From assembly GCA_016189835.1 (NCBI GenBank), contig JACPRU010000051.1:944-64943 (forward strand): DNA of 64,000 nt, written 5' to 3'. Below, one piece after another: positions 4,962 through 60,273 of the stretch. The DNA comes from Deltaproteobacteria bacterium. Its GTDB lineage: Bacteria; Desulfobacterota; Binatia; JACPRU01. Every line of letters begins with the position of its first letter. Positions within the stretch are counted from its first letter, which is position 1. The position numbers were made by a program, and so were the translations under genes. The notes under the pieces are model-generated. The model saw only the letters and a program-made list of their open reading frames with translations, had not been told where the DNA came from and ran no database searches.

Positions 4962-5998
4962 ACGATCAGCATGGCGTCACCGTAGCTGTAGAAGCGGTAC
5001 TGCCGCGCCACGGCCTCCCGATACGCCGCGAGGATTCGCTCCCTGCCCGCGAACGCCGCCACCAACACCAGCAGCGTCGAGCGCGGCAGGTGGAAGTTCG
5101 TGATCAGCGCCTCGACGACGCGAAACTCGTGGCCCGGGACGATGAACAGCGAAACCTCGCCGCGAAAGCCGCGGCCGGCGAGAAGCTCCGCGGCGGCCGC
5201 CTCGAGGGCGCGGACGGTGGTCGTGCCGACCGCGACCACTCGCCGTCCCTCGCGCTTGGCCTCGGCGATGCGCGCCGCCGTGGCCGGCGGCACCTCGACC
5301 CGCTCCGGCGCCATGTGATGGTCTTCGACCCGCGCCGTGCGGACCGGCAGGAACGTTCCGGGCCCCACGTGCAACGTCAGGTCGACGATCTCCACCTCGC
5401 GCGAGCGCAGGTGATCGATCGTCTCGAGCGTGAAGTGAAGACCGGCGGTCGGCGCCGCGACGGCACCGCACGAGCGCGCATAGACCGTCTGATACGCCTC
5501 GGCGTCGCTCTCGTCCGCCGCTCGGTCGATGTACGGCGGCAGCGGCACCTCGCCGACCGCGTCGAGCAACTCGATCACCGGACGGGGGGCGGCGAGCCGT
5601 ACGCTGCGGATCGCCCCGCCGGCGCCGTCGTCGAGCCAAGTCGCGACGATTCCGCCGCGAAGCTCCGCCGAGCCGCCACGGCGCAGCCGGCGGGCGGGGC
5701 GGGCGAGGCAGGACCAGACTTCTCCGTCCGCGTCGGCGCGCTCGCAGCGCAGCAGCAGCACCTCGACCGCACCGCCGCCGCTGCGCTCGCCCCGCAGCCG
5801 CGCCGGGATCACCCGCGTGTCGTTGCGGACCAACAGGTCGCCGGGGCGCAGATACTCCGGCAAGCGCTCGAAAGAGGAATGCGCCGGACTCGCCGCCGCG
5901 CGATCGACGATCATCAGGCGTGCCGAGCCGCGCTCCGGTAGCGGCCGCTGGGCGATCCGCTCCGGCGGCAGATCGAAGTCGAACTCGTCGAGGTTCAT
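4958..5998 (-). CDS. queA: S-adenosylmethionine:tRNA ribosyltransferase-isomerase
   Basis: The 346-aa product reads MNLDEFDFDLPPERIAQRPL...TNFHLPRSTLLVLVAAFAG, which is QueA. It overlaps tgt by 4 nt in the classical queA-tgt-yajC-secDF arrangement. Confidence 0.9.
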   Translation of the reverse strand: MNLDEFDFDLPPERIAQRPLPERGSARLMIVDRAAASPAHSSFERLPEYLRPGDLLVRNDTRVIPARLRGERSGGGAVEVLLLRCERADADGEVWSCLARPARRLRRGGSAELRGGIVATWLDDGAGGAIRSVRLAAPRPVIELLDAVGEVPLPPYIDRAADESDAEAYQTVYARSCGAVAAPTAGLHFTLETIDHLRSREVEIVDLTLHVGPGTFLPVRTARVEDHHMAPERVEVPPATAARIAEAKREGRRVVAVGTTTVRALEAAAAELLAGRGFRGEVSLFIVPGHEFRVVEALITNFHLPRSTLLVLVAAFAGRERILAAYREAVARQYRFYSYGDAMLIV

Positions 5999-7768: not shown

Positions 7769-9034
7769 TCACGGCTCCGCGACTCGCTCCCGCCGCGCCC
7801 GCGCCCCGGCCTTGGGCTCCGCCGGCCCCGACGCCGAGCTCCGCAGGCTCGCCACCCGCTCCATCAGACGCTCGGCGACGACCTCCTTGTCGAGCAGCGG
7901 CCAGCCTTCCGCCTCGCCCTCGGCGCTGATCAGCCACACGCGATTCGTGTCCACGTCGAATCCCGCATCCGTCTGACTCACGTCGTTCAGCACGATCAGG
8001 TCGAGGCGCTTCTCGCGCAGCTTGCGGCGTGCGTGCTCGATGCCGTGCTCGGTTTCCGCGGCGAAGCCGACCAGCAGGCGATCGGCGCGCCGCCGGGCAC
8101 CGACCTCGGAGAGGATGTCCTCGGTCTGTTCGAGCGCCAGCGACAACGAGCCGTTGCCCTTCTTGATCTTGTGGCGGGCGGGGTGGGCCGCGCGATAATC
8201 CGCGACGGCGGCGGTCATCACGACGACACTTGCCCACGGCTCACGCGCGAGCACCGCGTCGCGCATCTCGCTCGCCGTCGTCACCGCGATCCGCTCCACC
8301 CCCAGAGGAGCTTCCAACGCCGTGGGGCCGGTCACCAGCACCACCGACGCTCCGTGACGCCGGGCGGCGGCGGCGACGGCGAAGCCCATCTTTCCCGACG
8401 AGCGGTTCGAGATGAATCGCACCGGGTCGATCGCTTCGCGGGTCGGTCCCGCGGTCACCAGAACGCGCTCGCCCGCCATCACCTGCGGCGTGAGCGCCGT
8501 CTTGATTCCCTCGAGCAGGGACGCTTCGGAAGCGAGCCGCCCCTCTCCTTCGTAGCCGCACGCCAGCCAGCCGGCCTCGGGATCGACGAGGTGCATGCCG
8601 AGCTGGCGAAGCTTCGCCAGGTTCGCCTGCACGACGGGATTGCGGTACATGTTGACGTTCATCGCCGGCGCGACCACGATCGGCGCCCGCGTCGCCAGGG
8701 CCACCGTGGTCAGCAGGTCGTCGGCGATCCCGTGCGCCAGCTTGGCGATCACGTTGGCGGTCGCCGGCGCGATCACCAGCACGTCCGCGGAGTCCGCCAG
8801 ACGGATGTGGCCGATCTCGGATTCCTGCGTCAGGTCGAAGGTGTCGATCGCCACGGGGTGGCCGGACAGCGTCTGCAGCGTGAGCGACGTGATGAACTGC
8901 GCGGCGCCGCGGGTGAGCACCACCCGCACCGTGACGCCTTGCTTGACGAGCGCGCGCACCAGCTCGGCGGCCTTGTAACAGGCGATGCCGCCCGAAAGCC
9001 CGAGCACCACGGTCTTGTCATGAAGCACCGGCAT
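7769..9034 (-). CDS. coaBC: bifunctional phosphopantothenoylcysteine decarboxylase / phosphopantothenate-cysteine ligase
   Basis: The 430-aa ORF has the Dfp flavoprotein N-domain ([23 protein letters not shown]) and the CoaB C-domain. The start was chosen at MPVLHDK (M10); a GTG start 27 nt upstream is an alternative. Confidence 0.85.
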
Positions 9035-10025
9035 CTCTCCAGCTCTCACCGGCCTCGGCACGAATCTCCTTCAACGTGAAGCTCTCTCGCAGGAAGAAGT
9101 ATAGCCCAAGGAGAACCGTGCTGGCGAACTGCATCACGTGGACCAGCACCGAGTAGCTGAAGGATACGCTCTTGCCGACGCCGTACACGGCGAGGCCGAC
9201 CTCGCAACCGACCTGGAACATGCCGATGAAGCCCGGGCCTCCGGGAATCGCCACCGCGATCGCCACGATCGAGGTGAGCGACAGCGCCCCCCGCACCCAC
9301 GGCACCGGCAGGTCGAGCGCCGACAGGCCCAACCCGAAGGTGAGCGCCAGGGTCAGCCACACCGCCAACGAATAGAGCATCGCCAGACCGACCGCCGCCG
9401 CGCTGCGCAGGCTGCCGAGACCGTCGGCGAATTGCCGCACCGCATGCAGCAGCGGACCGGCGAGCCGCGCGGGGGCCGGCCGCAGAACGGCGGCGAGCAG
9501 CTCCACCGCGCGACCGGGGAAATGCTGCAGCACGACCAGCACGACGAGAAACGCCACGAACGTGGCGAGAAACAGCCAACCGTATCGCTGCCATTCCGGC
9601 GGCAAGGGCAGCGCGAGCGTGGCCACGCCGAAGAAGAGCACCAACGTGGCCATGTCGAACAGTCGCTCCACGGCGACGGTCGCCACGGTCGGGGCGAGCG
9701 GCAGCCCCTCCTTGCGCGCCAGCACGAGCGGACGCAGCACCTCGCCGGCGCGCAACGGCAGCAGCATGTTGGCGGCGAAGCCCATGGCGGTCGCTGCGAA
9801 CAGCGATCGTCGACTGACCGGCGCGAGCGGCAAGAGCAGCACCCCCCAGCGCAGCGCACGGAAGTACAACGAGACGCCCGCCGCCAGCAGGATCGGCAGC
9901 AGGTAGAGCATCCTCGCCGACGCCAGCGCCGCCGAGGTCTCCCCCCACGACACGTCGCGTACGGCGATCCACAGAAACACCGCCGAGAGCGCGAGGCTCA
10001 GGGCTATTCGCGTTAGACGCTTCAA
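9018..10025 (-). CDS. flippase-like domain membrane protein (UPF0104 / lysyl-PG-synthase TM-region family)
   Basis: The 335-aa polytopic membrane protein has the organisation typical of TIGR00374 / PF03706. It lies 37 nt downstream of ino1 and overlaps the coaBC start. Confidence 0.65.
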   Translation of the reverse strand: MKRLTRIALSLALSAVFLWIAVRDVSWGETSAALASARMLYLLPILLAAGVSLYFRALRWGVLLLPLAPVSRRSLFAATAMGFAANMLLPLRAGEVLRPLVLARKEGLPLAPTVATVAVERLFDMATLVLFFGVATLALPLPPEWQRYGWLFLATFVAFLVVLVVLQHFPGRAVELLAAVLRPAPARLAGPLLHAVRQFADGLGSLRSAAAVGLAMLYSLAVWLTLALTFGLGLSALDLPVPWVRGALSLTSIVAIAVAIPGGPGFIGMFQVGCEVGLAVYGVGKSVSFSYSVLVHVMQFASTVLLGLYFFLRESFTLKEIRAEAGESWRDAGAS

Positions 10026-10061
10026 GCGGCGCGCACGGCCCGAGAAGGGCGGATGGCTCGC

Positions 10062-11165
10062 TCAGCCTGGACCGTCGCCGCGAATGAAGCTCTCGACCTC
10101 GTCGCGCGCGATGTCGTCCGAGACCTGCCGGGGCGGATGCTTCATGAAATAGGATGAAACGCCGAGCAACGGGCCCCCGATGCCGCGGTCACGCGCCAGC
10201 TTGCAGCAACGGATGGCGTCGATCGCCACTCCCGCCGAGTTCGGACTGTCCTCGACCGACAGGCGCGCCTCGAGCTCGATCTTCGCGCCGCCGAAGCCGC
10301 GACCCTCGATGCGGAGAAAACAGACCTTGTTGTCCTTCTGCCACGGCACGTAGTCGCTCGGTCCGATGTGCACGTTCTGGCTGTCCATGCGCTCGGGGAG
10401 ATTCGACTGCACCGCCTCGGTCTTCGACAGTTTCTTGAAGCCGAGCCGTTCGCGGTTGAGCATGTTGAGGAAATCCGTGTTGCCGCCGGTATTGAGCTGG
10501 TACATGCGCTCGATCTGGATGCCGCGGTCCGCGAACAGCTTGGCGAGCGAGCGGTGGACGATGGTCGCGCCGAGCTGCGACTTGATGTCGTCGCCGACGA
10601 CGGGAATCTTCTTGCGCGCGAACTGCTCGGCCCACTCCGGGTTGGAAACGATGAACGTCGGCATGCAGTTGATGAAGCTCACTCCCTCGTCGAGGCAGGC
10701 TCGCGCATAGTGCTCGGCCGCCCGCTGGCTGCCGACGGGGAGGTAGCTGACCACCACGTCGGGCCTGGTGGCACGCAGAACCTGGGCGACGTCGACCGCC
10801 GGCGCGGAGGAAGGCACGAAGCGTTGCTCGGGCGGGTACTCCAGCAGGTGCTCCGAGAAGCCGTCGAGCATCGGCCCCATCTCGACGCGAACCTTGTAGC
10901 TCGGCAGCTTCGGGTAGATCTGCTGCGTGCAGTTCGGCGGGGCGAGCGCGGCGACCTCGAGCGGCTTGCCGACCTTGCGCTCGTCGATGTCGAACGCGCA
11001 CACGACCTGGATGTCGCCGGGACGATAGCCGGCCAGGTCGAGATGCATCAGTCCCGCGCCGGTGCCGTGCTTCGGACCCTCCCCGTCTCGGTAGTACTCG
11101 ATGCCCTGCAGCAGGCTCGAGGCGCAGTTCCCCACCCCCACGATTCCGAGACGGACTTTAGGCAT
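10062..11165 (-). CDS. ino1: myo-inositol-1-phosphate synthase
   Basis: The 367-aa product MPKVRLGIVGVGNCASSLLQGIEYYR...NTGGNTDF...SYFMKHPP is a bacterial/archaeal-type MIPS. Confidence 0.9.
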   Translation of the reverse strand: MPKVRLGIVGVGNCASSLLQGIEYYRDGEGPKHGTGAGLMHLDLAGYRPGDIQVVCAFDIDERKVGKPLEVAALAPPNCTQQIYPKLPSYKVRVEMGPMLDGFSEHLLEYPPEQRFVPSSAPAVDVAQVLRATRPDVVVSYLPVGSQRAAEHYARACLDEGVSFINCMPTFIVSNPEWAEQFARKKIPVVGDDIKSQLGATIVHRSLAKLFADRGIQIERMYQLNTGGNTDFLNMLNRERLGFKKLSKTEAVQSNLPERMDSQNVHIGPSDYVPWQKDNKVCFLRIEGRGFGGAKIELEARLSVEDSPNSAGVAIDAIRCCKLARDRGIGGPLLGVSSYFMKHPPRQVSDDIARDEVESFIRGDGPG

Positions 11166-11269
11166 GACCCGATCCCACCCCTGGTTTGGATAAAACGCAG
11201 TTAAAGACAGAATCTATAAGGAACGCCCGCTCCCTTGTAAAGCACGGCCCGCGCCGCGGCGGGCCACGC

Positions 11270-14609: not shown

Positions 14610-15005
14610 TCAGGCTCGGGCGAAGATCTCCCGCAAGTCGGCGGGGAGGCGGACGACCTTGCCGGCGCGATCGACGCACGCGTGCACCGTATAGCCCTCG
14701 ACGATCGCCTCCCGGCCGCAGGTGACTCGATAGTCGAAGCGCAGGCTCGCGCCCCGCACCTCGACCGAATCGATCGCCACGGCGAGCAGCATGTCGAAGC
14801 GCGCGAGGGAGCGATACCGGCACGACGCCTCGCGCACCGGGAAGAAGAACCCGGCGCGCTCGAACTCCTGATACGGCCGCCCCAGCGCCCGCAGTAACTC
14901 GGTCCGCGCCTCTTCGAACCACAGCAGGGCACGCGAGTGATGCGCGGCCTGGAATTGATCCGTGTCGGCGTAGCGCACGCGCCGCTGATACTCGAACACC
15001 GCCAT
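14610..15005 (-). CDS. acyl-CoA thioesterase, 4HBT (YbgC/hotdog) family
   Basis: The C-terminal 131 aa of ORF 14610..16253(-) read MAVFEYQRRVRYADTDQFQAAHHSRALLWFEEAR..., a hotdog thioesterase. The rest of that ORF is antisense to the CoA-transferase. Confidence 0.75.
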   Translation of the reverse strand: MAVFEYQRRVRYADTDQFQAAHHSRALLWFEEARTELLRALGRPYQEFERAGFFFPVREASCRYRSLARFDMLLAVAIDSVEVRGASLRFDYRVTCGREAIVEGYTVHACVDRAGKVVRLPADLREIFARA

Positions 15006-15122
15006 TCCGCGGCCGTTCCTAACCGAGGCCCGCGCGCTTGGCAACGCAGGCGGGACGCACTGAGGACGGCCGCGCGGCACGAGCGATTGGTGGCCGGGCG
15101 CCCCTGTGTTAAGGAGCGCGCC

Positions 15123-16289
15123 TTGGACGCTGGAGCGCTGGCGCATCTTCGCGTCGTCGAGGTGGGCTCGGGCCTGGCGGCGGCCCACGCGGCGAAGCTT
15201 CTCGCCGACCTCGGCGCCGACGTGGTCAAGGTCGAGTCGCCGGGCGGGGACGTGACCCGCCGCCTCGGCCCATTCCCCGGCGGCCGGCCCGATCCCGAGG
15301 CCAGTGGCCTCTTCCTCTATCTCAACGCCAACAAGCGCGGCGTCGTGCTCGATCTCGATGCCGGATCCGATCGCACGCGCTTCGGCCGGCTCCTCGACGG
15401 CGCCGACCTGTTGCTGCACGACGTCGAGCCCGCCAAGCTCGCCGGCTACGGGCTCGATCCCGAGGGCGTTCTGCGCGGCCGCCCGCGCCTGGTGGCCGCC
15501 TCGATCTCTCCCTTCGGTCTCTCCGGCCCGTATCGCGACTACAAGGCGTACGACTTGAATCTCTGGAACGCCGGCGGCATCGCGTGCCTGAACGGCGGCG
15601 GGCCGGGCACCGACGCTCTTCCTCCGCTGCGCACGTTCGGCTACCAGGCGATGTTCCAGGCCGGCCTGAACGCCGCGATCGCGTCGCTCGGCGCCCTGTA
15701 TGCGCGGGACGGGTCGGGAACCGGACAGCACGTGGAGATCTCGGTCCAAGAGTGCCTGGTGACCATCCTCGAGCTCACCTATCCCTTCTGGCCGTACTGC
15801 CGGCTGATCACTTCGCGGCTCGGCTACAAGCCGATCCAACCGCTCGACTTCTTCGCGTGCCGAGACGGCTGGGTGTTTCTGTGCGCCGTCGAGGAGCATC
15901 AGTGGAAGACCTTCGTCGAGGTGATGGGCGACCCCGCCTGGGCCGGGGTGGAGATGTTCGCCGACCGCTTGCAGCGCGCCGCCCACTGGGACGCGTTGAA
16001 GCCCCTGATCGCCGACTGGATGGCCGGGCAGACCGTCGCCGAGCTCTACGGCATGCTGCAGCGTCGTCGCGTGCCGATCGCTCCCGTCTCGACGATGGGC
16101 GACCTGCTGTCCTCCGAGCATCTCGCCGCCCGCGGCTTCTTCGTCTCCTTCGCGCATCCCCACGCCGGCCGCCATCGCATGCCCGGAGCGCCCTACCACC
16201 TGACGAGAACCCCGTGGGCGCTCCGCCGGCCGGCGCCGCTGCTCGGCCAACACACGGCCGAGGTGTTCGCCGAGGGCGCTCGCTCATGA
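15123..16289 (+). CDS. CaiB/BaiF family (class III) CoA-transferase
   Basis: ORF 14937..16289(+). The start was recomputed to the TTG at ~15123, which sits 6 nt after a perfect aaggag SD and gives (M)DAGALAHLRVVEVGSGLAAAHAAKLLADLGADVVKVE, a typical family III N-terminus. Confidence 0.8.
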   Translation: MDAGALAHLRVVEVGSGLAAAHAAKLLADLGADVVKVESPGGDVTRRLGPFPGGRPDPEASGLFLYLNANKRGVVLDLDAGSDRTRFGRLLDGADLLLHDVEPAKLAGYGLDPEGVLRGRPRLVAASISPFGLSGPYRDYKAYDLNLWNAGGIACLNGGGPGTDALPPLRTFGYQAMFQAGLNAAIASLGALYARDGSGTGQHVEISVQECLVTILELTYPFWPYCRLITSRLGYKPIQPLDFFACRDGWVFLCAVEEHQWKTFVEVMGDPAWAGVEMFADRLQRAAHWDALKPLIADWMAGQTVAELYGMLQRRRVPIAPVSTMGDLLSSEHLAARGFFVSFAHPHAGRHRMPGAPYHLTRTPWALRRPAPLLGQHTAEVFAEGARS

Positions 16290-17500
16290 GCCACAAGCCG
16301 CTCGCCGGAATCCGCGTGGCGGACTTCACCTGGGTCTGGGCCGGACCGTTCTGCACGCTCCAGCTCGCCCACCTCGGAGCCGAGGTCATCCGCGTCGAGA
16401 CGCCGCAGCGCCCGTGCGTGACCCGCCTGCTGCCGCCGTTCGCCGACCTCGAGCCGGGGCTGAACCGCAGCGGTTACTTCAATCAGTACAATCAGGGCAA
16501 GCGCTCTCTGAGCCTGAACCTCAAGAATCCGCGCGGCATCGAGATCGCCCGGCGCCTGATCGAGCGCAGCGACGTGGTGGCGGAGAACTTCGCCGCCGGT
16601 GTGATGGAGCGCATGGGCCTCGGCTACGACGACATCCGACGGCTCAAGCCCGACGTGGTGATGGTATCGATCTCCGGCTACGGACGAAGCGGCCCGGAGA
16701 AGGAGTTCGTCTCCTACGGGCCGGCGACGGTTCCGCTCGCCGGGTTCTCCGCCGTCACCGGCTACGCCGGCGGGCCGCCCATGCACGTGGGAATCTCCTA
16801 CGGGGATCCGACGGCGGGCCTGCACGCGGCCCTGGCCGTGCTGGCGGCGCTGCACCACCGTCGACGCACCGGGGAGGGGCAGTTCATCGACGTTTCGCTG
16901 TGGGAGGCCTCCGCGAGCCTGCTGCCCGACGCGTTGCTCGACCACGAGATGAACGGAATCGATCCGTCCCGCGACGGCAATCGTCACCCCCGGATGGCTC
17001 CGCACGGCGTGTTCCGCTGCGCCGGTGAAGACCGCTGGGTCTCGATCGTCGTCGGCGACGAAACCGAGTGGCGCGCGCTGTGCTCGGCGATGGAAGATCC
17101 GGCGCTCGCCGCGGACCCGCGCTTCGCGACCCTCGCGGAGCGCAAGCGAAACGAGGACGGGCTCGAGGAGCGTATCCACCAGTGGACGCGCAGCCTGGCG
17201 CCGGACGAGGTGACGCGCCGGCTGCAGGCGGCCGGCGTGGCGGCCTTCACCACGATGACCAACCAGGATCTCGCCGAGGATCCGCACCTCGCGCGGCGCG
17301 GCTTCTTCGTCGATCTGCCGCACCCGGAGGTCGGCCCCCGGCATCACGCGGGAATTCCGTGGCGGATGTCGGCGACCCCCTGCACGGTCGAGTCCCCAGC
17401 CCCATGCCTCGGCGAGCACACCCGCGACGTCCTCGAGCGCGTGCTCGCCTACGGGCCCGCGGAGATCGACGCGCTGGCCGCCGCGGGCGCACTCGGCTGA
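16286..17500 (+). CDS. CaiB/BaiF family (class III) CoA-transferase (second, tandem)
   Basis: The 404-aa product begins MSHKPLAGIRVADFTWVWAGPFCTLQLAHLGAEVIRVE. Its ATG overlaps the upstream stop (ATGA), which indicates translational coupling. Confidence 0.85.
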   Translation: MSHKPLAGIRVADFTWVWAGPFCTLQLAHLGAEVIRVETPQRPCVTRLLPPFADLEPGLNRSGYFNQYNQGKRSLSLNLKNPRGIEIARRLIERSDVVAENFAAGVMERMGLGYDDIRRLKPDVVMVSISGYGRSGPEKEFVSYGPATVPLAGFSAVTGYAGGPPMHVGISYGDPTAGLHAALAVLAALHHRRRTGEGQFIDVSLWEASASLLPDALLDHEMNGIDPSRDGNRHPRMAPHGVFRCAGEDRWVSIVVGDETEWRALCSAMEDPALAADPRFATLAERKRNEDGLEERIHQWTRSLAPDEVTRRLQAAGVAAFTTMTNQDLAEDPHLARRGFFVDLPHPEVGPRHHAGIPWRMSATPCTVESPAPCLGEHTRDVLERVLAYGPAEIDALAAAGALG

Positions 17501-17513
17501 GGGACCGGGGCGA

Positions 17514-18701
17514 TCAGCCGCCGCGGCCGAGCACGAACTCGGGCAGCGCGCGCAGGGCCCGGCGCTTGTCGGCGCCGCCCGTCACCAGGATCCACACGGT
17601 CATCGACAGGTAGAGGCCGGACAGCGCGTAGCGTACGGCGGCGTCGGTGAACACCAGCTGGCAGGCGAACAGCACCAGCAGCACGGCGGCTTCGCGAACA
17701 CTGAAGCGAAGGTCGGCGATCACCGTGACGGCGAACGCCGACTGCGCCGTGGTCAGCAGCATCTCCTCGATCTGACGCTCGTCGAGCGGCATGGCGAGCG
17801 GCGCCCCGGCCGACAGGCTGTAGACCATCGGCAGCATGCCGATCAGCAGCGTCCACTGGTTCACCGCGGACGAAACCAGCGCGCTGATTCCCGCGCTCGA
17901 CTTGCCCTGCCAGGCGAACAGGATGCAGATGATGAACTCGGGCGACTCGGAGGCGAGCGGCGCGAGCCACTGAACGAGCAGGAACTCCTCGATGCCGAAC
18001 CGGCGCCCGTTCGCGACCAGACCTTCCGCGAACGGCTCGGCGGCGGCCAGGATGGCCGTTGCCGAGTAGGCGAACAGGAACACGACGACCGCGCGTCGCC
18101 GCGCGACCGGCAGAGCGGCGATCCACTCGGCGGGGCCGCCCAGCTCCGGCTCCTCGTGCTCGGCCCGTGCGGCGAGGATCATGTAGGCCACGAACAGCGA
18201 CACCAGCACGGCGGAGTCCCACAGGCTGATCGTCTGCTTCCAGGGAATCACGAACGAATAGAGCGTCGCGACCACCAGGAAGAACACTTCCACCGACTGC
18301 GAGCGGTCGAGCGCGAACGTGCGGGCACGCGTCCTCAGCCAGGCGGTCCCCACCACGGTCGCCCAGCCGAGACCGATCAGCAGGCGGTTTCCGCCCGTCA
18401 TGTTCGCCGTCGCGAAAGCGGTGTACCCCTCGCGGTGCGGCGCTTGCCAGGCGAAGTACATGTCCACCGCGTACTCCGGCAGCACCGCGATCAGCGCCAG
18501 GAAGGCCATCGCCAGCGCGCGAGGGATGTCCACCTGGGCGGCCTCCGCGGCCCACGACAGCAGAAACGCCGAGCCGAAGATGGCCGCGCCGGCCGCGACC
18601 GTCTCGAGCAGCATGGCGCCCGCGGCAAGGTGCGTGGCCCGCAACACGAGCCACTGCAGCGCTAGTAGCGCAGCGAGGGAAAGGTAGAGGAGATTACGCA
18701 A
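17514..18701 (-). CDS. sodium/calcium exchanger (CaCA) family membrane protein
   Basis: The 395-aa polytopic protein has two internal alpha-repeat regions typical of cation/Ca2+ exchangers. Confidence 0.7.
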   Translation of the reverse strand: MRNLLYLSLAALLALQWLVLRATHLAAGAMLLETVAAGAAIFGSAFLLSWAAEAAQVDIPRALAMAFLALIAVLPEYAVDMYFAWQAPHREGYTAFATANMTGGNRLLIGLGWATVVGTAWLRTRARTFALDRSQSVEVFFLVVATLYSFVIPWKQTISLWDSAVLVSLFVAYMILAARAEHEEPELGGPAEWIAALPVARRRAVVVFLFAYSATAILAAAEPFAEGLVANGRRFGIEEFLLVQWLAPLASESPEFIICILFAWQGKSSAGISALVSSAVNQWTLLIGMLPMVYSLSAGAPLAMPLDERQIEEMLLTTAQSAFAVTVIADLRFSVREAAVLLVLFACQLVFTDAAVRYALSGLYLSMTVWILVTGGADKRRALRALPEFVLGRGG

Positions 18702-19323: not shown

Positions 19324-20271
19324 TCAGCGCCGACGGCCGCGCGGGGCCGGGCCATGCGCGACGTAGACCGCTCCTCCCACCAACCCGGACAGCATCACCA
19401 CCACGAACCAGGCGAGCGCGAAGGCGATCGCCGATTCGCGAGAGACGCCGATGTGGGCGAGGAAGAACACGTAGCCGCCTTCCCGCACGCCGAGGCCGTT
19501 CAGGCTCACCGGGATCGCCGCCAGGATGTTCACCAGAGGCCCGAGGATGAAGCAGTACGACCAGGGCACCGCCAAGCCGAGCGCGGAGACGAGCACGACG
19601 AGCACGCCGACCTGGGAGAGGTGAAAGCAGAGCGACAGCAGGCTCACCTCGGCGAGCAGTCGATAATCGTCCCAGTAGGGCGCCAGATCCTGCTCGATCA
19701 GGCGGCGCAGACGGCTGTCGCGCCTCAGCACCCGGGGCAACAGCCGCGGCAGCACCCGCCATCCGCCGAGCAGCGCGCCCGACAGTGCGATCACCCCCCA
19801 GTAGAGCGCCGCGGGCAGCTCGTAGTGGTGAAGCACGCCGAGCGCGACCAATGCGACGCCCAGCAGCACGACGAGGCCGCTCACGCGGTCGGCGACCACG
19901 GTATTCACCGCCAGGGCGTGCCGTCCCCCCGATCCCGCCAGATAGAGCGCGCGGACCACGTCCCCGCCCACCGTGCCGAAGCCGAAGGCGTTGAAGAACA
20001 CGCCGATGAAGTAGTACCCGACGAACGAGGCGGCGCTGCCGCCGAATCCGACGGCGCTCGCCAGCCGCCTCCATTTGAGCGCCGAGACCACCTGTCCCGC
20101 GACGTACAGCGCCACCGCGAAGGCGAACCGCCCGAGATCGAGGTGGCCGACGAACCGGGCGATCTCCGCGAAATCGACACGCCGCAGGAGATAGAGCAGG
20201 AGCCCGAGGCTGACCGCCAGCTTGGCGGCCAGCTTCCAGGGCCGTTGCGGCTGGGAAAGGTCGGCGGGCAC
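19324..20271 (-). CDS. flippase-like domain membrane protein (UPF0104 family), second copy
   Basis: The 315-aa polytopic membrane protein has the same architecture as 9018..10025. It is divergently oriented to the B12-radical SAM gene. Confidence 0.6.
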   Translation of the reverse strand: MPADLSQPQRPWKLAAKLAVSLGLLLYLLRRVDFAEIARFVGHLDLGRFAFAVALYVAGQVVSALKWRRLASAVGFGGSAASFVGYYFIGVFFNAFGFGTVGGDVVRALYLAGSGGRHALAVNTVVADRVSGLVVLLGVALVALGVLHHYELPAALYWGVIALSGALLGGWRVLPRLLPRVLRRDSRLRRLIEQDLAPYWDDYRLLAEVSLLSLCFHLSQVGVLVVLVSALGLAVPWSYCFILGPLVNILAAIPVSLNGLGVREGGYVFFLAHIGVSRESAIAFALAWFVVVMLSGLVGGAVYVAHGPAPRGRRR

Positions 20272-20392
20272 AGCGCGCTTCTAGCGGGAACGCCCTGGAA
20301 TGGAAACGCGGCTTCCTCGATCTTGCGGCGTCCGCGATCCCTCGATCGGCGCCGCCTTGGCAGGTCCCGCCCGTTGGCCTATAGCTCTGGGC

Positions 20393-21886
20393 ATGAGCGC
20401 TCGCGGCAGCATCCGCAGGGTCGCGCTCGTCGAGCCGCCTTACGTGTTCTGGGACCGCAGCATGGATCGCCTGCGCCAGAGCGAAGAATCGATCCCGGGA
20501 TTCGGCATGCTCATGCTCGCCGCCGTGGCGCGCGCCCGCGGCTACGAGGTGCGCATCTTCGACGCCAAAGGAAGCGGCGAGTCCCCCGATCGCATCGCCA
20601 CCGGCCTGCTCGCCTTCGCTCCCGACGTCGTCGGCTTCTCGGCGACGACCGTCTCGATCGCCAACGCCGACCGCATCGCGCAGCGCGTGAAGGCGGCCGC
20701 GCCGCAAACCATCACCGTCGTCGGCGGGGCGCACGTGAGCGCCGTCCCGGAGCGCACGCTCGCCGCGTTCCCCGCTCTCGACTACGGCATGATCGGCGAA
20801 GGCGAACTGTCGTTCTTCGAGTTCCTCGCCCGCCTCGGCGACGGCGGGGGAGTCGGTGACTGCGCGGGGCTCGTGCATCGGCGAGGCGAGGAGGTCGTCG
20901 CCAACCGCCGGGCGCCCTACATCACCGATCTCGACGCGCTGCCCCGGCCGGCTTGGGATCTGGTCCGCGGATTTCCTCACCGCTTCCATCCCTCGCTGCT
21001 CAGCTACCGCCGGTCTCCCGTGGCCACGTTGGTGACCAGTCGCGGCTGTCCGTTCTCGTGCTCCTTCTGCGACCGCTCCACGTCGGGAAAGCTCGGCCGC
21101 TATCACTCCACCGAATCGGTGCTGCGCCACTGCCGCCATCTCGTCGATCTCGGCGTTCGCCACATCATCTTCTACGACGACCTCTTCACCGTGAAGCGCC
21201 AGCGCGTGGTCGAGATCTGCGAGGGCTTCCTGGCCGCCGGGCTCGACTTCACTTGGAGCTGCAACAGCCATCCCAATCTGCTCGACTTCGAGACCCTGCG
21301 CTTGATGAAGCGCGCCGGCTGCTGGCAGATCGCCTACGGCATCGAGTCGGGATCCCAGCGGATCCTCGACGTCGTCAAGCGCGAGGTTCGGCTTCCGCGC
21401 ATGCGCGAGACGCTGCGCATGACGCGGGCCGCCGGCATCCGCGCGAAGGGCTATCTGATGATCGGCCATCCCACCGAGACGTTCGAGACCCTCGAGGAAA
21501 CCGCCGAGTTCCTGCGGGTCGTGGAGCTCGACCTCTGCCAGATCACGAAGTTCACGCCGTACCCGGGAACGCCGGCCTACCCGACGATCCGGGCGCACGG
21601 CGCGTTCACCGAGGATTGGGAGCGCATGAATGCCATGAACTTCGTGTTCGTGCCGAGCGGCCTGTCGGAGGCGGCTCTGGAGACGCAGTTCCATCGCCTC
21701 TATTCGATCTTCTACAGCCGACTGGACGTGCTGCGGGGCATCGCACGGATGGTGCTCGAGGAACCGCGCTTCCTGCGTCAGCTCGGATCGTCGGCATGGG
21801 TGTACCTGAAATCACAACTGCCGAATCGGCACTTCCGCCGCGGCATCCTCGGGCGGCGGTGCCCGACCGAGTCGCTTGCTTCCTGA
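20393..21886 (+). CDS. cobalamin (B12)-binding radical SAM protein (class B radical SAM)
   Basis: ORF 20300..21886(+) has an N-terminal B12-binding Rossmann-like region (RVALVEPPYVF...GYEVRIFDA) and the radical SAM CxxxCxxC motif RGCPFSCSFC. The start was set at MSARGSIRRV (M32). Confidence 0.8.
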   Translation: MSARGSIRRVALVEPPYVFWDRSMDRLRQSEESIPGFGMLMLAAVARARGYEVRIFDAKGSGESPDRIATGLLAFAPDVVGFSATTVSIANADRIAQRVKAAAPQTITVVGGAHVSAVPERTLAAFPALDYGMIGEGELSFFEFLARLGDGGGVGDCAGLVHRRGEEVVANRRAPYITDLDALPRPAWDLVRGFPHRFHPSLLSYRRSPVATLVTSRGCPFSCSFCDRSTSGKLGRYHSTESVLRHCRHLVDLGVRHIIFYDDLFTVKRQRVVEICEGFLAAGLDFTWSCNSHPNLLDFETLRLMKRAGCWQIAYGIESGSQRILDVVKREVRLPRMRETLRMTRAAGIRAKGYLMIGHPTETFETLEETAEFLRVVELDLCQITKFTPYPGTPAYPTIRAHGAFTEDWERMNAMNFVFVPSGLSEAALETQFHRLYSIFYSRLDVLRGIARMVLEEPRFLRQLGSSAWVYLKSQLPNRHFRRGILGRRCPTESLAS

Positions 21887-23309: not shown

Positions 23310-24410
23310 ATGAGCTTGGAGGTTTTCAAGAAACTTCCGCTCGGCGGCTTGGACCGGCGCGCGCTCGCCGCATCGCTCTCCGCCCACGGACGGTCGACGG
23401 CCGCCGAGCTGCTCGATCGGCAGCGCGCCGCCGTCCGGCCCCAGGGAACGCGCATCGCCGGCGATGTCGCGGTGCTGATCCTCGGCGGATCGAACGGCAT
23501 CACCCGTGCGCTGGCGATCCAGCTCCTGTTCGGCGAACGGGCCGCGGTCTACGGCGTCCACTTCGACAGCGAGAAGCTGCAGATCGGCTGCTTTCACGTG
23601 CAGGCGCTTCGCGAGGCGGCCGCGCAGGCGCGCCTCGTCGCCGAATTCTGGAACGAGGACGCGACCAAGCCCTCGACCATCGAGGCCGTCGTGGCCGCGC
23701 TGCGCTCGCGGCACCGCGCCGTGCACCTGGTGAACGGCATCGCCGCCGGGGCGACCAAACGCTACGCGCAGCACGGACCCGCCCGGGTCAAGGATCTCGA
23801 CGTCGCCTTTCATCCGGTCCTCCAAGTCCCCGACTTCTCCAGCCCGCGGAACCTGCGCCGGCTCGGACTCGTCGACGTCGAGGTCGCCACCGAGGCCGAC
23901 GTCGAGCGCACGAACCGCTTCATGGGGACCTCGTCGCTGCCGTGGGCGGAAGCGCTCGCCGCGGCCGGCCTGCTCGCCCGCGACGAGAGCATCGTCGCGT
24001 TCTGCGACTACGACTATCCGCCGGACGATCCGGTCTATGCGATGGGGCCGCTCGCCGGCGCCAAGCAGCTGCAGCGCCGGACGGTGTCGGAGATCCGCGC
24101 ACGGTTCGCGGCGCGCACCGTGCGGCTCTGCTACCCGGCGATGGCGACCACCGCGCTCGGCGCGATCCCCGGCGGCCTGCTGATGTACGCGCTCACCGCG
24201 CAAATTCTTCTCGAGCGCGGCCAGTACAAGGATCTGCCCGAGCTCGCCGCCGAGTCGATGAGCATGTTCCGGCCCGGAGCGCAGGGTCACGAGCTGCGTC
24301 TGGACGCCGCCTACCAGCAATGCTTGCCGGAATTCTCTGCCCGCAGCGCCGCGCTCGAGCCCGGCGATCTGCCCGCCGGCCTGCATCTCGTGTTCGCGGC
24401 GCGGTCCTGA
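23310..24410 (+). CDS. putative NAD(P)H-dependent trans-2-enoyl reductase (FabV/TER-like)
   Basis: The 366-aa product has the N-terminal motif VAVLILGGSNGITRALAIQLLFGERAAVYGVHFD, which resembles the FabV nucleotide-binding segment (RVLVIGASTGYGL...GVFFE). The similarity is distant and the call is by pattern only. Confidence 0.45.
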   Translation: MSLEVFKKLPLGGLDRRALAASLSAHGRSTAAELLDRQRAAVRPQGTRIAGDVAVLILGGSNGITRALAIQLLFGERAAVYGVHFDSEKLQIGCFHVQALREAAAQARLVAEFWNEDATKPSTIEAVVAALRSRHRAVHLVNGIAAGATKRYAQHGPARVKDLDVAFHPVLQVPDFSSPRNLRRLGLVDVEVATEADVERTNRFMGTSSLPWAEALAAAGLLARDESIVAFCDYDYPPDDPVYAMGPLAGAKQLQRRTVSEIRARFAARTVRLCYPAMATTALGAIPGGLLMYALTAQILLERGQYKDLPELAAESMSMFRPGAQGHELRLDAAYQQCLPEFSARSAALEPGDLPAGLHLVFAARS

Positions 24411-54416: not shown

Positions 54417-57400
54417 CTAGGGAACGGCGGGCGCCGGCACCTCCCGGTACGGGTCCGCGGCGCGGCCGGCGTTGCGGTGCAGCCGGTAGCAAAAGCTGCG
54501 CACGCGGCGCTCGTCGAGCGGCGTGCCGTCGTCGTAGTAGAAGAAGAACGGGATGTCCTTGCGGTGGCGCAGCAGCCCCTCGGTCACGAGGCTGTTGTCG
54601 CAGCCCCAGCAGGCGACCATCGCGACGCCGTCGTAGAGCCCGGTGTCCCAGGCTTGCAGCGCCGAGCCGATCTCGATCGTGGTGCCGCCGATGGTGTCGG
54701 GATCGAGCAGCTCCTCGGCCTTGGCGATCGCTTCCTCGACCGCCGGCTGCGGCAGCCACGGGTGCAAGACTCGCACTTCACGGTAGTAGCGCCCGCGCAG
54801 TTCCGCTTGCTGCGACACCATGAGATCCGCGACCGCCTTCGGGGTCGCCCGGCCGAACTGCAGGTGAGGATGGCGCCGGGCCAGATATTCGAAGAAATTC
54901 GTCAGCGGATCGAGCACCAGCCGCAAGCCCTGCTCGCTCATGCGCAGCAGCAGGCCGCCGTTGGCGAGGTCGTTGCCCTTGGTCATGGTTTCGCCGGCGA
55001 CGAACACGCGGCGGAACGACTTCGCACCCTGCCACGCCGCCTCCATGTCCGCGAAGCGTCGCGATGCTTCCTGCAAGACCGCGCCGATTTCGTCGGCGCG
55101 CGCCGCGATCTCGGGTTGCGCGTCGGCCGGATCGGCGAGCGGCCGCTCGATGACCGCGAGCAGGGCGGCGATCGACTCCTCGTAGAGCGCGCGCGACGCG
55201 CCGGCGCGCGGCTCGACCGGCAAGTGGTAGACGTACAACTGGCGCAGGATCTCGACGGCCGACAGGCCCGCCCAGATGAACAGCGACATCGGCGGATCGG
55301 CGCCGAAACGCATGCCCTGCTCGCTGACGAGATCGTACAGACCCATCTTGTCGAGCGAGATCTTGTCCTTGACGTCGAACACGCCGGCCCGGCACATCTG
55401 ACCGTTGAACGCCAGCAGGTGGGTCTCCTTGGTCGGCGGGTTTTTCTCGAGGTAGTCGCGGAACGCTCCCCAGATCAGCTGGTAGCCCATGCACTCCTTG
55501 CCCGAGCAATCCGCCTTGCCGCAGGTGCGCGTGCTCTCCGTATGGGCGGGCGCCGCCACGGCATCGTAGCCGTACGCGCGGTAGACGGCGGCGAAGGCCG
55601 CGCCGATGTTGTCGGCCATGCTGAGCGTGACGTACCGCGCGTCGGGGTCGAGAAAGCCGCCCGGCTTGCCGCGGCCGGGGTCGAGATAGGAAATCGTGCG
55701 CGCGTTCTCGGGCAGCGCCCGCGCGCCGCCCTCGGCGATGAACTGGCGCACCGACTGCAGGAACGCCTGGACGCGCGTGACGAAGCCGGCCTCGCCGCCG
55801 TGCCCGTCGCTCTCGAGAATGGTGTGCGGGTAGCCCTCCATCAGGGCCTGGAAGATCTGCTCGGTGAACGACGACGGCCCGCAGCCGAAGGACGCGAGCA
55901 GCACCGGGAACACGTCGCGCAGCTCGCGGGCGTGCAACGCCGCGCGCAGCGAGCGGTTGTCGTCGCCCCAGTAGGCGCGGTGCAGACGCGGGATCTTCTC
56001 GTTGACCGGGAAGCAGTCGACCGGGATCGCCATCGCGCCGTTGCGCCGCAGGATGTACGGGATCCCGGCGTTGATCGCCGGATCGCAGATCACGTGGATG
56101 TGGCCGACCAGCAGCACGGCCGGCACCGCCTGGCGGCGCGCGTAATCGAGCGCCTCGCGCCCGATGCGCTCGAGCCCGTCCTCGAAGCGCGCCTGGGCGG
56201 CGGCGGCGCGCGCGATGGCCTGCTCCATGAGTGCCGGATCGGCGCCAAGCTCGGCGGCGACACGCTGCATCTCGGCGAGCAGCCCGGGGTGGGCGAGCCC
56301 GTCGCGAAACGACAACCGCGGGCGCACCACGCGCACGTCCTTGCCGCGCCCGAGCAGCGACTTTTCGACCATCTCGGGCATGGCCTGCTCGGCGACGCAG
56401 GTTTGCCCGCCCTTGCCCTTGGTGTCGGCAACCCGAAAGATCTTCGGGAACAACAGCAGATCGACGTCGGCATCGCAGACCGCGAGCGCGATCTTCACCG
56501 GGCCGCACGAATCGAAGCTGTGGCAGAGCTGCTCGCCGGCCGCGAGCGATCCGCCGTCGGAACGCAGCAGCCGGACCGCGAAGCCGAGCTCGTCGGCGAA
56601 GGTCGCGAGCCACGGCACGTGGGGCCCCACGGCGCTGATCGCGGGGATCGCGACCACCGGCGCTCCCGGTCGCGGGCGCACGAAACTCTCGAGCAGGGCG
56701 TCGCGCTGCTCGAAGGGGTTCGGGGCCTCCTTGGCCAGCTTCGGCTGGTTCTTGGTGGGCAGCTCGAACTTCGGGCAGGCGCCACCCGAGAAGGCCTTGT
56801 GCCGGACGTCGCGGACCTGGATGGTCGTGCGCTCGATCGGGCAGAGGGTCTGGCACTGGGGGTCGCGACAGCGAAACTCCGAGCGCTCGGTGATGTCGGC
56901 GGCAAGGAGCCCCGCGAGGTCGAGCCGCGGAGCCGCCAGCAGCGCGGCCGCGCCGAGCTGTTTCCCGGCACACAGGCCGATGCCCCAGGCGCCCATCGCG
57001 CCGGGGTTCGGCGGCACCACGATCTCACGGCCGGTGACCGCCGCGAGCGTCCAGGCGAGCGACGGGTTGGCCGCGGGCTTGCCCTGGAAGAACACCCGCT
57101 CGCCGAGCGTCCGCTGCCCCATGACGCGGTTGATGTAATTGTGGATCACCGAATACTGGAAACCCGCGAAGATGTCCTCCCGGGTATAGCCCTCCTTGAT
57201 GGCGAGCGCGGCGGCGTCGGCGACGAACACCGTGCACATCTGGCCGAGATCCGGCGGGCGCTGCGCCCTCGAGGCCAGCGCGACGAACTCGTCGATGTCG
57301 CGGACGTCGTAGAGATTGGCCTGCTCCTCGAGGAACGAGCCGGTGCCCGCGCTGCAGGCCTTGTTCATGTCGCTCTCGACGATCCGCCCGCCCTGCACGC

Positions 57401-58727
57401 GGATGTACTTCGCATCCTGGCCGCCGATCTCGATGACCGACAGGTCCTCGCCGCGGCGCGCGTCGCAGCGCGTGGCGGCGGTCGCGTGCGCGACGATCTC
57501 GTTCAGCACGATGACGTGCTCGCTGTCGGGGTAGACGGCGCGCACCAGCGTCGCCACGGCCTCGCGGCCCGATCCCGTCACGCCGATGGCGCGCACGTCG
57601 GCGTCGGTCGTGTCGAGGATCGCGCGCACCAGGCGCCGCGCCGCATCGACCGGGTTGCCGCGCGTGCGGTCGTAGACGTCGAGCACGACCTCACCGGTTT
57701 CGACCGAGGTCAGTACCGCCTTGGCGCCGGTCGAGCCGAGGTCGAGCCCGAGCACGCTCGGCCGCGCGGCGGCCCCCGCGGGAACCGCCGCCGTCGGCAT
57801 GATCGTGACGCGCTCGCGCCAGCCGCTCGCCGGGCGCAGGGTCTCGAAACGGTCGCCGCCGGCGCGCACGAGCTCGGCGGGATCGGCCGGCAGCGGCGCG
57901 CGCGCCTCACCGCGAGCCTGCAACGCGGCGATGGCCGCAGCGCCCACCGCCTCGAAGCACTCGGCATGCGGCGGCATCTTGACCGGCGCGCCGAGCAGAT
58001 CCTCGAACGACCGCCGGAACGAAGCGATGCGCGCCGGGCCGCCGATCAGATAGACCGGCCCGTCGACGTGGTTGCGCGCCGCCAGCGCATAGGTGTTGCG
58101 CGCCACCGAACTGAAATAGCCCTTGAAGAGCTCGCCGGTCGGCTTACCCTGGTTGGCGAAGTGGGTCATCTCGGTCTTGGCGAACACCGAGCAGCGCGCC
58201 GTGATCGGGATGCCCTCGCCGGCCGCGAGCGCCTTGTCGTCGGCTTCGGCGACGCCGAGGCCGAAGCGATCGACGATCTTCTGGATGTTCTCGCCCGTGC
58301 CCGACGAGCACTTGTCGTTTTCGAGATACTGGTAGACGTACTTCGGGGCCGCGCCGCCGCGCCCGGCCACATCCCGCTTGCGGCTCAGCACACCGTAGCC
58401 GCGCGCACCGATGCTCACCAGATTGAGCGCGTCCTCGAGCTCGGGCGACAGCTCGAGCGCCGCTTCCTGGCACGAGTCCTCCGGCAGAACCAGCACCGGA
58501 TCGCGGAGTTCGTCGGCGTGGACCCCGGTCGCGGCGAGCACCGCGCACGAGGCGATCCCCTGCTCGCGGTACCATGCTCGAAAGAGTCCGATGGGATCGC
58601 CGTCGTGCGGCTGAGAGCGCGTGTGCTCGATCACGAGCGCGCCGTCCGCGCCCACTTGCGCGGCCACGAAGCGCGCCGATGCCTTGCCCAAATCGCAGCC
58701 CGCGATGCGCAATCCGTCGGCCTTCAC
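54417..58727 (-). CDS. fused HgdC-like double ATPase activase (BcrAD/BadFG) + HgdAB-like (2-hydroxyacyl-CoA dehydratase D-component) protein; PlsA/PlsR ('Ger')-type
   Basis: ORF 54417..58889(-). The start was recomputed to a GTG (ggagaagg SD) giving (M)[20 protein letters not shown]. The product has two BadF/BcrA-type ATPase modules (…[14 protein letters not shown]…) followed by HGD-D-like and DUF2229-like regions with conserved Cys. It is ~1436 aa. Confidence 0.75.
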
Positions 58728-58964
58728 GGTTCGACCTTCTCCGCTTCTACCCAGATATGCCCCGGCGCTTTCGCCGGTCAAGCATCTGCCCGGCACGCCG
58801 AGCCGCTGCTCGACGCTCTCCAGCCCGGTCGCCCGCGCACCGAGCACCCTGCTCCCGTCCCGGCCCTGCTTCATCGGCCGGCCCGACACGTCGACGATCG
58901 GCCGTTCAGCGATCGTCAGCCGGCATGCGATTCGCCTCGGCCACCGCGGCCGACCGGGCGGCGC

Positions 58965-60146: not shown

Positions 60147-60273
60147 CGAACCTCCCCGCGACGGTGACGACGCCTCGATGCATCCCTAAACAACCCGCAG
60201 ACCGCGAAGTCAAGCAACGTCTCCGGATCGGCCGCGGCCGTTTGACTCGCGCGGCGAAATGTAGTGAATCCCG

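Follow-up and report, generated by a model that had tools for sequence, protein, structure and literature searches.

A cobalamin-type radical SAM enzyme of Binatia-type bacteria, its flippase-like neighbour and a possible lipid-linked substrate

Introduction

Lipid-modifying radical S-adenosylmethionine (SAM) enzymes of the cobalamin type have products that last as chemical marks, methylhopanes and ring-bearing tetraethers among them; few of these enzymes have been functionally assigned. Among the closest described systems are genuine hopanoid operons, where the B12 radical SAM gene hpnJ lies with a gene for a PF03706-family membrane protein in the order hpnI-hpnJ-hpnK-PF03706 in Mycetohabitans and hpnJ-hpnI-PF03706-hpnK in Burkholderia. 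Here we analyze a stretch of DNA from a bacterium of the Binatia lineage (contig JACPRU010000051.1; the whole 64-kb stretch is called the window below) in which a gene for a B12-binding radical SAM enzyme is divergently paired with a gene for a flippase-like PF03706 membrane protein. We propose, at a probability of roughly 45%, that the enzyme is a cobalamin-type radical SAM tailoring enzyme that acts on a lipid-linked substrate, near the head group, and for which the neighbouring PF03706 protein is not an obligate partner.

The window resembles the HpnJ/HpnL arrangement in that a B12 radical SAM enzyme is paired with a PF03706 membrane protein, and those orthologs of the enzyme that lie in a larger gene cluster (cluster-type loci, described below) also have deacetylase and family 2 glycosyltransferase (GT2) genes nearby. 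It differs in that the window membrane protein gives no match to HpnL (TIGR03476) at E<=0.001 in NCBIfam and is not linked by phmmer to two proteins in the HpnL position, that the cluster-type deacetylase is NodB-type whereas HpnK is YdjC-type, and that no hopanoid genes are detected in the window.

Of the solved structures, AprD4 (PDB 6FD2), the radical SAM 1,2-diol dehydratase of apramycin biosynthesis, comes nearest both by sequence (99 bits) and by fold (template modelling (TM) score 0.68-0.74); it has the same two-domain layout and acts on an aminosugar, but it is only 22-23% identical and belongs to a soluble aminoglycoside pathway. BchE shares the domain architecture and 28-29% pairwise identity, but the genuine gene has bchJ and ppsR at its sides, and the enzyme studied here has no bch neighbours. 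The TIGR04072 enzymes of ladderane-type clusters are B12 radical SAM proteins found among FabF-like ketosynthase and acyl carrier protein (ACP) genes, like the contexts of three related loci (L001, L010 and L021; L numbers denote individual loci) and of an Azoarcus homolog, but the window enzyme has no ketosynthase or ACP neighbours. On the membrane side, the window protein resembles the MprF N-terminal flippase domain and UPF0104 in matching the PF03706 model nearly end to end; it differs in being 315 residues long, with PF03706 as its sole Pfam match and no C-terminal aminoacyl-phosphatidylglycerol synthase domain of the MprF kind found.

Results and discussion

Architecture of the radical SAM enzyme

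The longest open reading frame opens at ATG 20300 and would encode 528 residues; because homologs run to 496-498 residues, we place the start at ATG 20393, which gives a protein of 497 residues with the following features.

20393..21886, + strand: B12-binding radical SAM enzyme, 497 residues (PF02310 and PF04055, homolog lengths, fold matches, and the ratio of nonsynonymous to synonymous substitution rates, dN/dS)
20489..20815, + strand: cobalamin-binding Rossmann-type domain, residues 33-141 (PF02310; the alternating strand/helix pattern of the structural model fits)
21032..21514, + strand: radical SAM core, residues 214-374 (PF04055, 85.8 bits)
21047..21070, + strand: CxxxCxxC motif for the SAM-cleaving [4Fe-4S] cluster, C219/C223/C226 (read from the translation)

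An earlier reading of this DNA made from the letters alone, which we call the sequence-only reading, had described a protein of about 497 residues with a B12-binding domain and the motif RGCPFSCSFC and had called it a class B radical SAM enzyme; domains, motif and predicted fold bear this out. The Pfam B12-binding model PF02310 scores 80 bits (E 1.6e-22, cut-off 32.1) and the Radical_SAM model PF04055 85.8 bits (E 4.8e-24), which places the protein in class B on both its domains. The motif occupies residues 217-226, and its cysteines C219, C223 and C226 are invariant in 40 orthologs, with equivalents in all intact homologs compared, HpnJ and BchE included. An AlphaFold model built on the 40 orthologs (pLDDT, the predicted local distance difference test score, 82.9; pTM, the predicted TM score, 0.85) aligns over its full length with AprD4, MgmA, TsrM, OxsB, TokK and CysS at TM scores of 0.62-0.69. 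As judged from domains and model, the enzyme has the class B (cobalamin-type) radical SAM architecture and may use cobalamin. AprD4 has a B12-like domain yet is not known to use cobalamin, and the domain alone is therefore no proof of cobalamin dependence. Cobalamin genes, which the sequence-only reading had proposed to look for elsewhere in the genome, did not turn up in the 64-kb window, where no cobalamin synthesis or transport gene and no Rfam family, cobalamin riboswitches included, was detected.

Third-codon-position GC content is 0.86-0.90 for the enzyme and membrane-protein genes, in a window of ~70% GC. The enzyme gene has a dN/dS of ~0.12-0.16 and the membrane-protein gene one of ~0.23-0.27; from the codon-position GC content and the low dN/dS we conclude that both genes are real and under purifying selection.

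Three further cysteines, C276, C290 and C310 (21218-21322), are also invariant in the 40 orthologs; they are common to most homologs of 36-43% identity and are not found in HpnJ or BchE.

An orthologous clade outside the named families

Named-family identities were judged by NCBIfam bit scores against curated cut-offs. The best match of the enzyme is HpnJ (TIGR03471), at 189.1 bits against a cut-off of 577.6 over model positions 67-457 of 472, followed by ApyD (152) and BchE (144.6), by two P-methyltransferase families (132 and 129), and by TIGR04072 (123.2, in two stretches), AprD4 (111) and HpnR (90.7). Each of these identities was considered and rejected where a cut-off could be applied: BchE (TIGR02026) at 144.6 vs 481.35 bits, with a separate clade and no bch genes detected in the window; the hopanoid C-3 methylase HpnR (TIGR04367) at 90.7 vs 650; the lipid-biosynthesis B12 radical SAM family TIGR04072 at 123.2 vs 360; and AprD4 (111 vs 500) and the P-methyltransferases, likewise below their cut-offs. 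HpnJ was rejected on its score, on 27-28% identity, and on a separate clade with a bootstrap of 0-1% for grouping the two; moreover, no hpnI, hpnK, shc or hpnH gene was detected near the enzyme in the 64-kb window. Megaplasmid-encoded proteins annotated as HpnJ or BchE share 27-29% identity with the enzyme, and HpnJ (27-28%, with two annotated proteins at 28%) is no closer than BchE (28-29%).

In a neighbour-joining tree, with the frameshifted-looking L044 sequence left out of the bootstrap, the window enzyme and its relatives of at least 62% identity form a single clade with 100% support, divided into three subclades supported at 93, 100 and 100. The clade stands outside HpnJ and BchE, two of the families relative to which the sequence-only reading had wished to see the enzyme placed; for HpnR, a third, the separation is by score only. 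Closest outside the clade is a loose assortment of homologs of 36-43% identity from Geobacter, Aminicenantes, Anaerolineales, Omnitrophota and others. Each of the 18 genomes that have a copy of at least 62% identity has exactly one, a pattern consistent with orthology and not with paralogy. These orthologs come almost entirely from Binatia-type metagenome-assembled genomes (MAGs), the closest relatives being named Candidatus Binatia, and among the best 80 of 517 genome matches Acidobacteriota are represented by Aminicenantes only, at 41-42% identity. The enzyme is thus a member of an uncharacterised orthologous clade of a known enzyme class, centred on Binatia-type bacteria. Our literature searches on Binatota with radical SAM, on branched glycerol dialkyl glycerol tetraethers (brGDGTs) with radical SAM and on aryl polyenes with B12 found nothing on this clade.

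One contig binned as Terriglobales (L004, DASPMH010000474.1) carries a full Binatia-type cluster, with enzymes of 66% (the ortholog) and 82% identity; its label reflects either transfer or a binning error.

Gene context of the orthologs

The orthologs differ in their surroundings. Group A (74-87% identity) comprises the window and the loci L003, L005-L007, L087 and L091, in which genes for a Na/Ca exchanger, HU and the PF03706 protein are followed, divergently, by the enzyme, PCMT, OsmC and a FabV-like protein. The same pair is thus found in 7 loci, all close relatives, and 14 more pairs are inferred by cross-matching two protein searches; since every flanking gene is syntenic too, this conservation is of little help in judging function. 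Contigs CAVUWD010000016.1 and JBEVNX010000075.1 are further examples of the window-type arrangement in MAGs.

Group B, with nine distinct loci at 62-67% identity, is organized as a large cluster, in which genes for a NosL/ThiH-like radical SAM protein, a NodB-type deacetylase, a PF03706 protein of a different subfamily and an ICMT/PEMT-like methyltransferase precede the enzyme; in L001 the deacetylase, PF03706 and methyltransferase genes overlap by 4 nucleotides. Further along come a histidine/tyrosine ammonia-lyase, BamE-like lipoproteins, a CmlS-like (halogenase-like) flavoenzyme and an LpxL-like acyltransferase, and beyond these a second B12 radical SAM protein and a PlsC-like acyltransferase, with a FabF-like ketosynthase pair or a GT2 protein in some loci. 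Group C (L014, L015, L017 and L019) is a stripped-down version that keeps the enzyme with the LpxL-like gene and the second radical SAM gene with the PlsC-like gene, and has no deacetylase. At L016 the lyase, the enzyme and a GT2 of the polyprenyl-phosphate-sugar-synthase type are followed by unrelated genes. More distant homologs lie in comparable company: that of Azoarcus pAZKH (36.5% identity) has ICMT-family, ketosynthase, ACP and PAP2 genes nearby, that of L021 a deacetylase and three ketosynthases, and that of a Geobacter MAG GT2 genes, an acetyltransferase, an ElyC-like gene and a PpgS-like GT2. The group B lyase passes a histidine ammonia-lyase subfamily cut-off and scores 417 vs 700 on the flexirubin tyrosine ammonia-lyase model; an aryl-polyene interpretation is thus no more than a hint, and we call the large cluster only lipid/glycolipid-type.

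The second B12 radical SAM gene (16051-17505 in L001, 16457-17809 in L085 and 15500-16945 in L015) always lies beside the PlsC-like acyltransferase gene and is the most constant partner of the enzyme outside the window lineage. It is more conserved than the enzyme studied here, at 80-97% identity among its top 120 matches, and has no copy in the 64-kb window.

Because most other members of the clade lie in this lipid/glycolipid-building cluster, we infer that the substrate is a membrane-anchored, lipid-linked molecule. LpxL-like or PlsC-like acyltransferases, ketosynthase/ACP genes, and the deacetylase, GT2 and PF03706 genes recur in independent contexts; the recurring deacetylase, GT2, PF03706 and acyltransferase neighbours, together with the action of AprD4 on an aminosugar, lead us to favour a modification on, or close to, a sugar or aminosugar head group. 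The lipid-directed role put forward in the sequence-only reading is accordingly plausible from the neighbours of orthologs and homologs (acyltransferases, ketosynthase/ACP, GT2, NodB, PF03706); what finds no support is a window pair that behaves as one conserved functional unit.

The cluster-type neighbours also suggest a more specific chemistry, an HpnJ/Cds-type ring contraction (the proposed chemistry is summarised in PMC13459092) in which a lipid-linked glucosamine-type head group would become carbocyclic, or cyclitol-like, as a non-hopanoid counterpart of hpnI-J-K-L. HpnJ is the best NCBIfam match, at 189 bits for the window enzyme and 200 bits for the L001 ortholog, and cluster-type loci supply a NodB deacetylase, a GT2 and a PF03706 protein with a weak HpnL match (36.8 bits), exactly the make-up of genuine hpn operons. 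We nevertheless consider this explanation unlikely, as the enzyme scores just a third of the HpnJ cut-off, true HpnJ is as distant as BchE and does not group with the clade, neither the window nor any of the four stripped-down loci has the deacetylase, and no shc or hpn gene was detected in the window.

The ketosynthase, ACP, fatty-acid desaturase, thioesterase and acyltransferase genes near orthologs and homologs are, in turn, what might be expected under the explanation offered in the sequence-only reading, namely a class B C-methylase or cyclase working on acyl or isoprenoid chains of membrane lipids, its product flipped by the PF03706 protein, possibly yielding the methyl branches of brGDGT or iso-diabolic-acid lipids. 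The class B architecture, the conservation of the pair in close relatives and the predominance of methylases among characterised cobalamin radical SAM enzymes (PMC13598231) are consistent with it. It is improbable in our judgement, given that no chain-methylase family comes near its cut-off (HpnR, 91 vs 650 bits) and that the PF03706 partner is not clade-wide and survives loss of the enzyme. The tetraether part of the idea finds no support: no tetraether-synthase-type or other ether-lipid gene is among the annotated window genes, the orthologs of at least 62% identity are almost all Binatia-type, with the one Terriglobales-labelled contig excepted, and the best 80 of 517 genome matches, with Aminicenantes (41-42%) alone for the Acidobacteriota, suggest that the gene is absent from brGDGT-producing cultures.

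The membrane protein and the status of the pair

The partner gene and the region that separates it from the enzyme are as follows.

19324..20271, - strand: PF03706/UPF0104 flippase-like polytopic membrane protein, 315 residues, transmembrane region only (PF03706, TIGR00374)
20272..20392, no strand: divergent intergenic region of 121 nucleotides (bounded by the two start codons; parts conserved in close relatives)

The divergent pairing with a protein of the UPF0104/lysyl-phosphatidylglycerol-synthase transmembrane family, as first read, was confirmed, with a gap of 121 nucleotides: the PF03706 model (LPG_synthase_TM) scores 120.1 bits over residues 15-294 of 315 (gathering threshold 33.4, E 1.8e-34), and the generic flippase-like TIGR00374 is the sole NCBIfam model matched, at 47.8 bits. 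The protein belongs to a Binatia-centred subfamily of its own. There is no detectable pairwise similarity between the window and group B PF03706 proteins, and by phmmer the window protein, a second PF03706 protein encoded in the window (PF03706-2), the group B protein and the two HpnL-position proteins fall into four mutually unlinked subfamilies; of these proteins of Binatia-type loci, the group B one alone matches HpnL, weakly and over its full length.

Several observations weigh against our reading, and some of them argue for an alternative in which the adjacency is incidental, the substrate is not a lipid (a peptide, tetrapyrrole or soluble metabolite) and the PF03706 protein belongs to the local backbone. 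In L090 (ERZ28669063, ctg13148) the backbone runs PF03706-2, inositol-phosphate synthase, Mrp, polyprenyl synthase, MoaA, HU, PF03706 and divergent PCMT, with the window-type PF03706 gene intact at 55% identity; in the slot of the enzyme is a 560-nucleotide gap with a frameshifted relic (5589-5925) of residues ~37-149, in three frames at 50-75% identity, which resembles group A (64-66%) more than groups B and C (52-58%). A relic beside an intact PF03706 gene indicates that the enzyme was lost and the membrane protein kept. Radical SAM genes are not found next to PF03706 homologs at a greater distance (44-46% identity); within 10 kb of the enzyme no PF03706 gene is found in L012, L014-L017 or L019, and L012 holds the enzyme alone, with none of the partner genes. 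Contexts vary among the loci of the clade as a whole. In the window itself no glycosyltransferase, deacetylase or acyltransferase adjoins the enzyme, the nearest GT2 being 9 kb downstream. Among the 120 matches listed for the second radical SAM protein, all of them cluster-type copies at no less than 80% identity, none could be matched to a group A contig. No function has been assigned to PF03706 proteins outside MprF, HpnL included. On each named-family model the enzyme reaches between about one quarter and one third of the cut-off, and because all scores fall so far short, no named family guides the chemistry.

The incidental alternative can also point to the RiPP (ribosomally synthesised and post-translationally modified peptide) enzyme ApyD and to BchE as the second and third best NCBIfam matches, and to the Mg-protoporphyrin cyclase label that many orthologs carry at the Joint Genome Institute (JGI). 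We give it little credence: the BchE score is 145 vs 481 bits with no bch genes detected in the window, no recurrent precursor peptide, protease or exporter genes occur near the orthologs, and lipid and glycan genes recur across several independent contexts. A B12 radical SAM gene stands beside a PF03706 gene in three cases whose PF03706 subfamilies are mutually undetectable; since the enzyme clade adjoins two unrelated PF03706 subfamilies and the hopanoid operons make a third independent case, co-location is unlikely to be pure chance. As a background, one further PF03706 copy was counted away from the enzyme in ~360 kb of fetched Binatia-type loci, or ~1 per 300 genes, a rough figure as the profile may miss subfamilies.

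The pairing is not universal, and it is not obligatory either. Against an obligate unit speak a partner that is exchanged or lacking in parts of the clade and its survival after loss of the enzyme; the synteny with UPF0104 proteins foreseen in the sequence-only reading holds for group A, and fails in deeper loci, which have another subfamily or none, and in L090, which lost the enzyme. From these gene neighbourhoods we read the pair as a probable loose functional affinity for membrane-anchored intermediates and not as a dedicated two-gene system.

Proposed substrate and chemistry

Under the favoured explanation, a tailoring enzyme for a lipid-linked substrate, the protein would be a soluble two-domain enzyme whose [4Fe-4S] cluster, bound by C219, C223 and C226, would reductively cleave SAM; the resulting 5'-deoxyadenosyl radical would take a hydrogen from an unactivated carbon, and the substrate radical would then either be methylated from methylcobalamin or be rearranged by ring contraction, cyclisation or dehydration. 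Methylases make up most of the characterised cobalamin radical SAM enzymes (PMC13598231), and recognised non-methylases in the class are HpnJ, BchE, OxsB and the ladderane enzyme (PMC13598231; PMC13459092). The sequence-only reading had passed from class B membership to C-methylation of unactivated carbons; this is only a prior, and the step does not follow, because the closest families and structure include the non-methylases HpnJ, BchE and AprD4. Methyl transfer from methylcobalamin is the single likeliest guess, a little short of an even chance; a radical rearrangement (ring contraction, cyclisation or dehydration) is a substantial but lesser prospect, and some other chemistry would be a minority outcome. 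In the window lineage the gene sits outside the cluster, in a housekeeping-type backbone beside a PF03706 protein of a different subfamily, which plausibly handles the same class of lipid-linked intermediates.

A bolder extension, very unlikely when taken with all its parts, is that the clusters build a new envelope glycolipid of Binatia-type bacteria with two cobalamin radical SAM enzymes, the product bearing a C-methylated or carbocyclic aminosugar head group and an unusual (aryl-polyene-like) acyl chain. The NodB deacetylase, the PF03706 and ICMT-like proteins, the LpxL-like and PlsC-like acyltransferases, the GT2 and the ketosynthase/ammonia-lyase/halogenase set would be its other components; in the window lineage the enzyme would have been unplugged from the cluster and re-paired with an unrelated flippase-like protein, a non-orthologous replacement of the membrane partner.

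Annotation and significance

JGI labels many of the orthologs 'anaerobic Mg-protoporphyrin IX monomethyl ester cyclase'. The NCBIfam cut-off, the tree and the gene context all show that it is not BchE, and neither is the second radical SAM protein of the large cluster, judged by its 106 bits on the BchE model; on the same sequence comparisons the label is likely a mis-annotation. A survey of Binatota describes 'bchE' as ubiquitous within an otherwise incomplete bacteriochlorophyll pathway (PMC8262859), and these calls may rest on the two enzymes. Defining the product of the clade would clear up this annotation problem. Essentially all Binatia-type genomes sampled contain a member of the clade, and its product would provide a marker, lipid or pigment, for an uncultured phylum that is widespread in soils and sediments. 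That B12 radical SAM genes repeatedly lie beside PF03706 genes of unrelated subfamilies is also relevant to the function of HpnL-type proteins.

Intergenic region and surroundings

A candidate promoter for the enzyme lies within the intergenic region.

20357..20385, + strand: promoter-like TTGGCA-17 nt-TATAGC (read from the sequence; conserved in the alignment with L003, L005 and L006)

This motif stops 7 nucleotides ahead of the ATG of the enzyme, which suggests, if the putative promoter is used, a near-leaderless transcript; a sigma-70 consensus scanner reported no site in the intergenic region.

The window order around the pair is PF03706-2 (9018-10061), myo-inositol-1-phosphate synthase, a Mrp/ParA-type Fe-S protein, polyprenyl synthase, MoaA, a thioesterase, two CaiB-type CoA-transferases, a Na/Ca exchanger, HU, the PF03706 gene and the enzyme, and continues past the enzyme with PCMT, OsmC, a divergent FabV-like reductase and a large regulator. 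This is a housekeeping-looking setting, and the 64-kb window has no detected hopanoid (shc, hpn), bacteriochlorophyll (bch), tetraether or ketosynthase genes.

Several side observations concern these neighbours. The PF03706-2 gene (9018-10061, - strand) abuts the myo-inositol-1-phosphate synthase gene (10062-11213) with zero gap, and the two recur as a pair in L090 (10855-12741); this suggests that the paralog may have an inositol-lipid-related role. The thioesterase, two CaiB-type CoA-transferase and Na/Ca exchanger genes between MoaA and HU (14610-18701) are also present in L003 but missing in L090, whose gene order is otherwise the same, and so mark a second insertion/deletion difference of the backbone. 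The FabV/trans-2-enoyl-CoA-reductase-like gene (23310-24410, + strand) scores 63 bits against a cut-off of 403 and is syntenic in all close relatives. Further away, 54417-60185 (- strand) encodes a 1515-residue BadF/BcrA-type CoA-enzyme activase with DUF2229, directly downstream of an acyl-CoA dehydrogenase.

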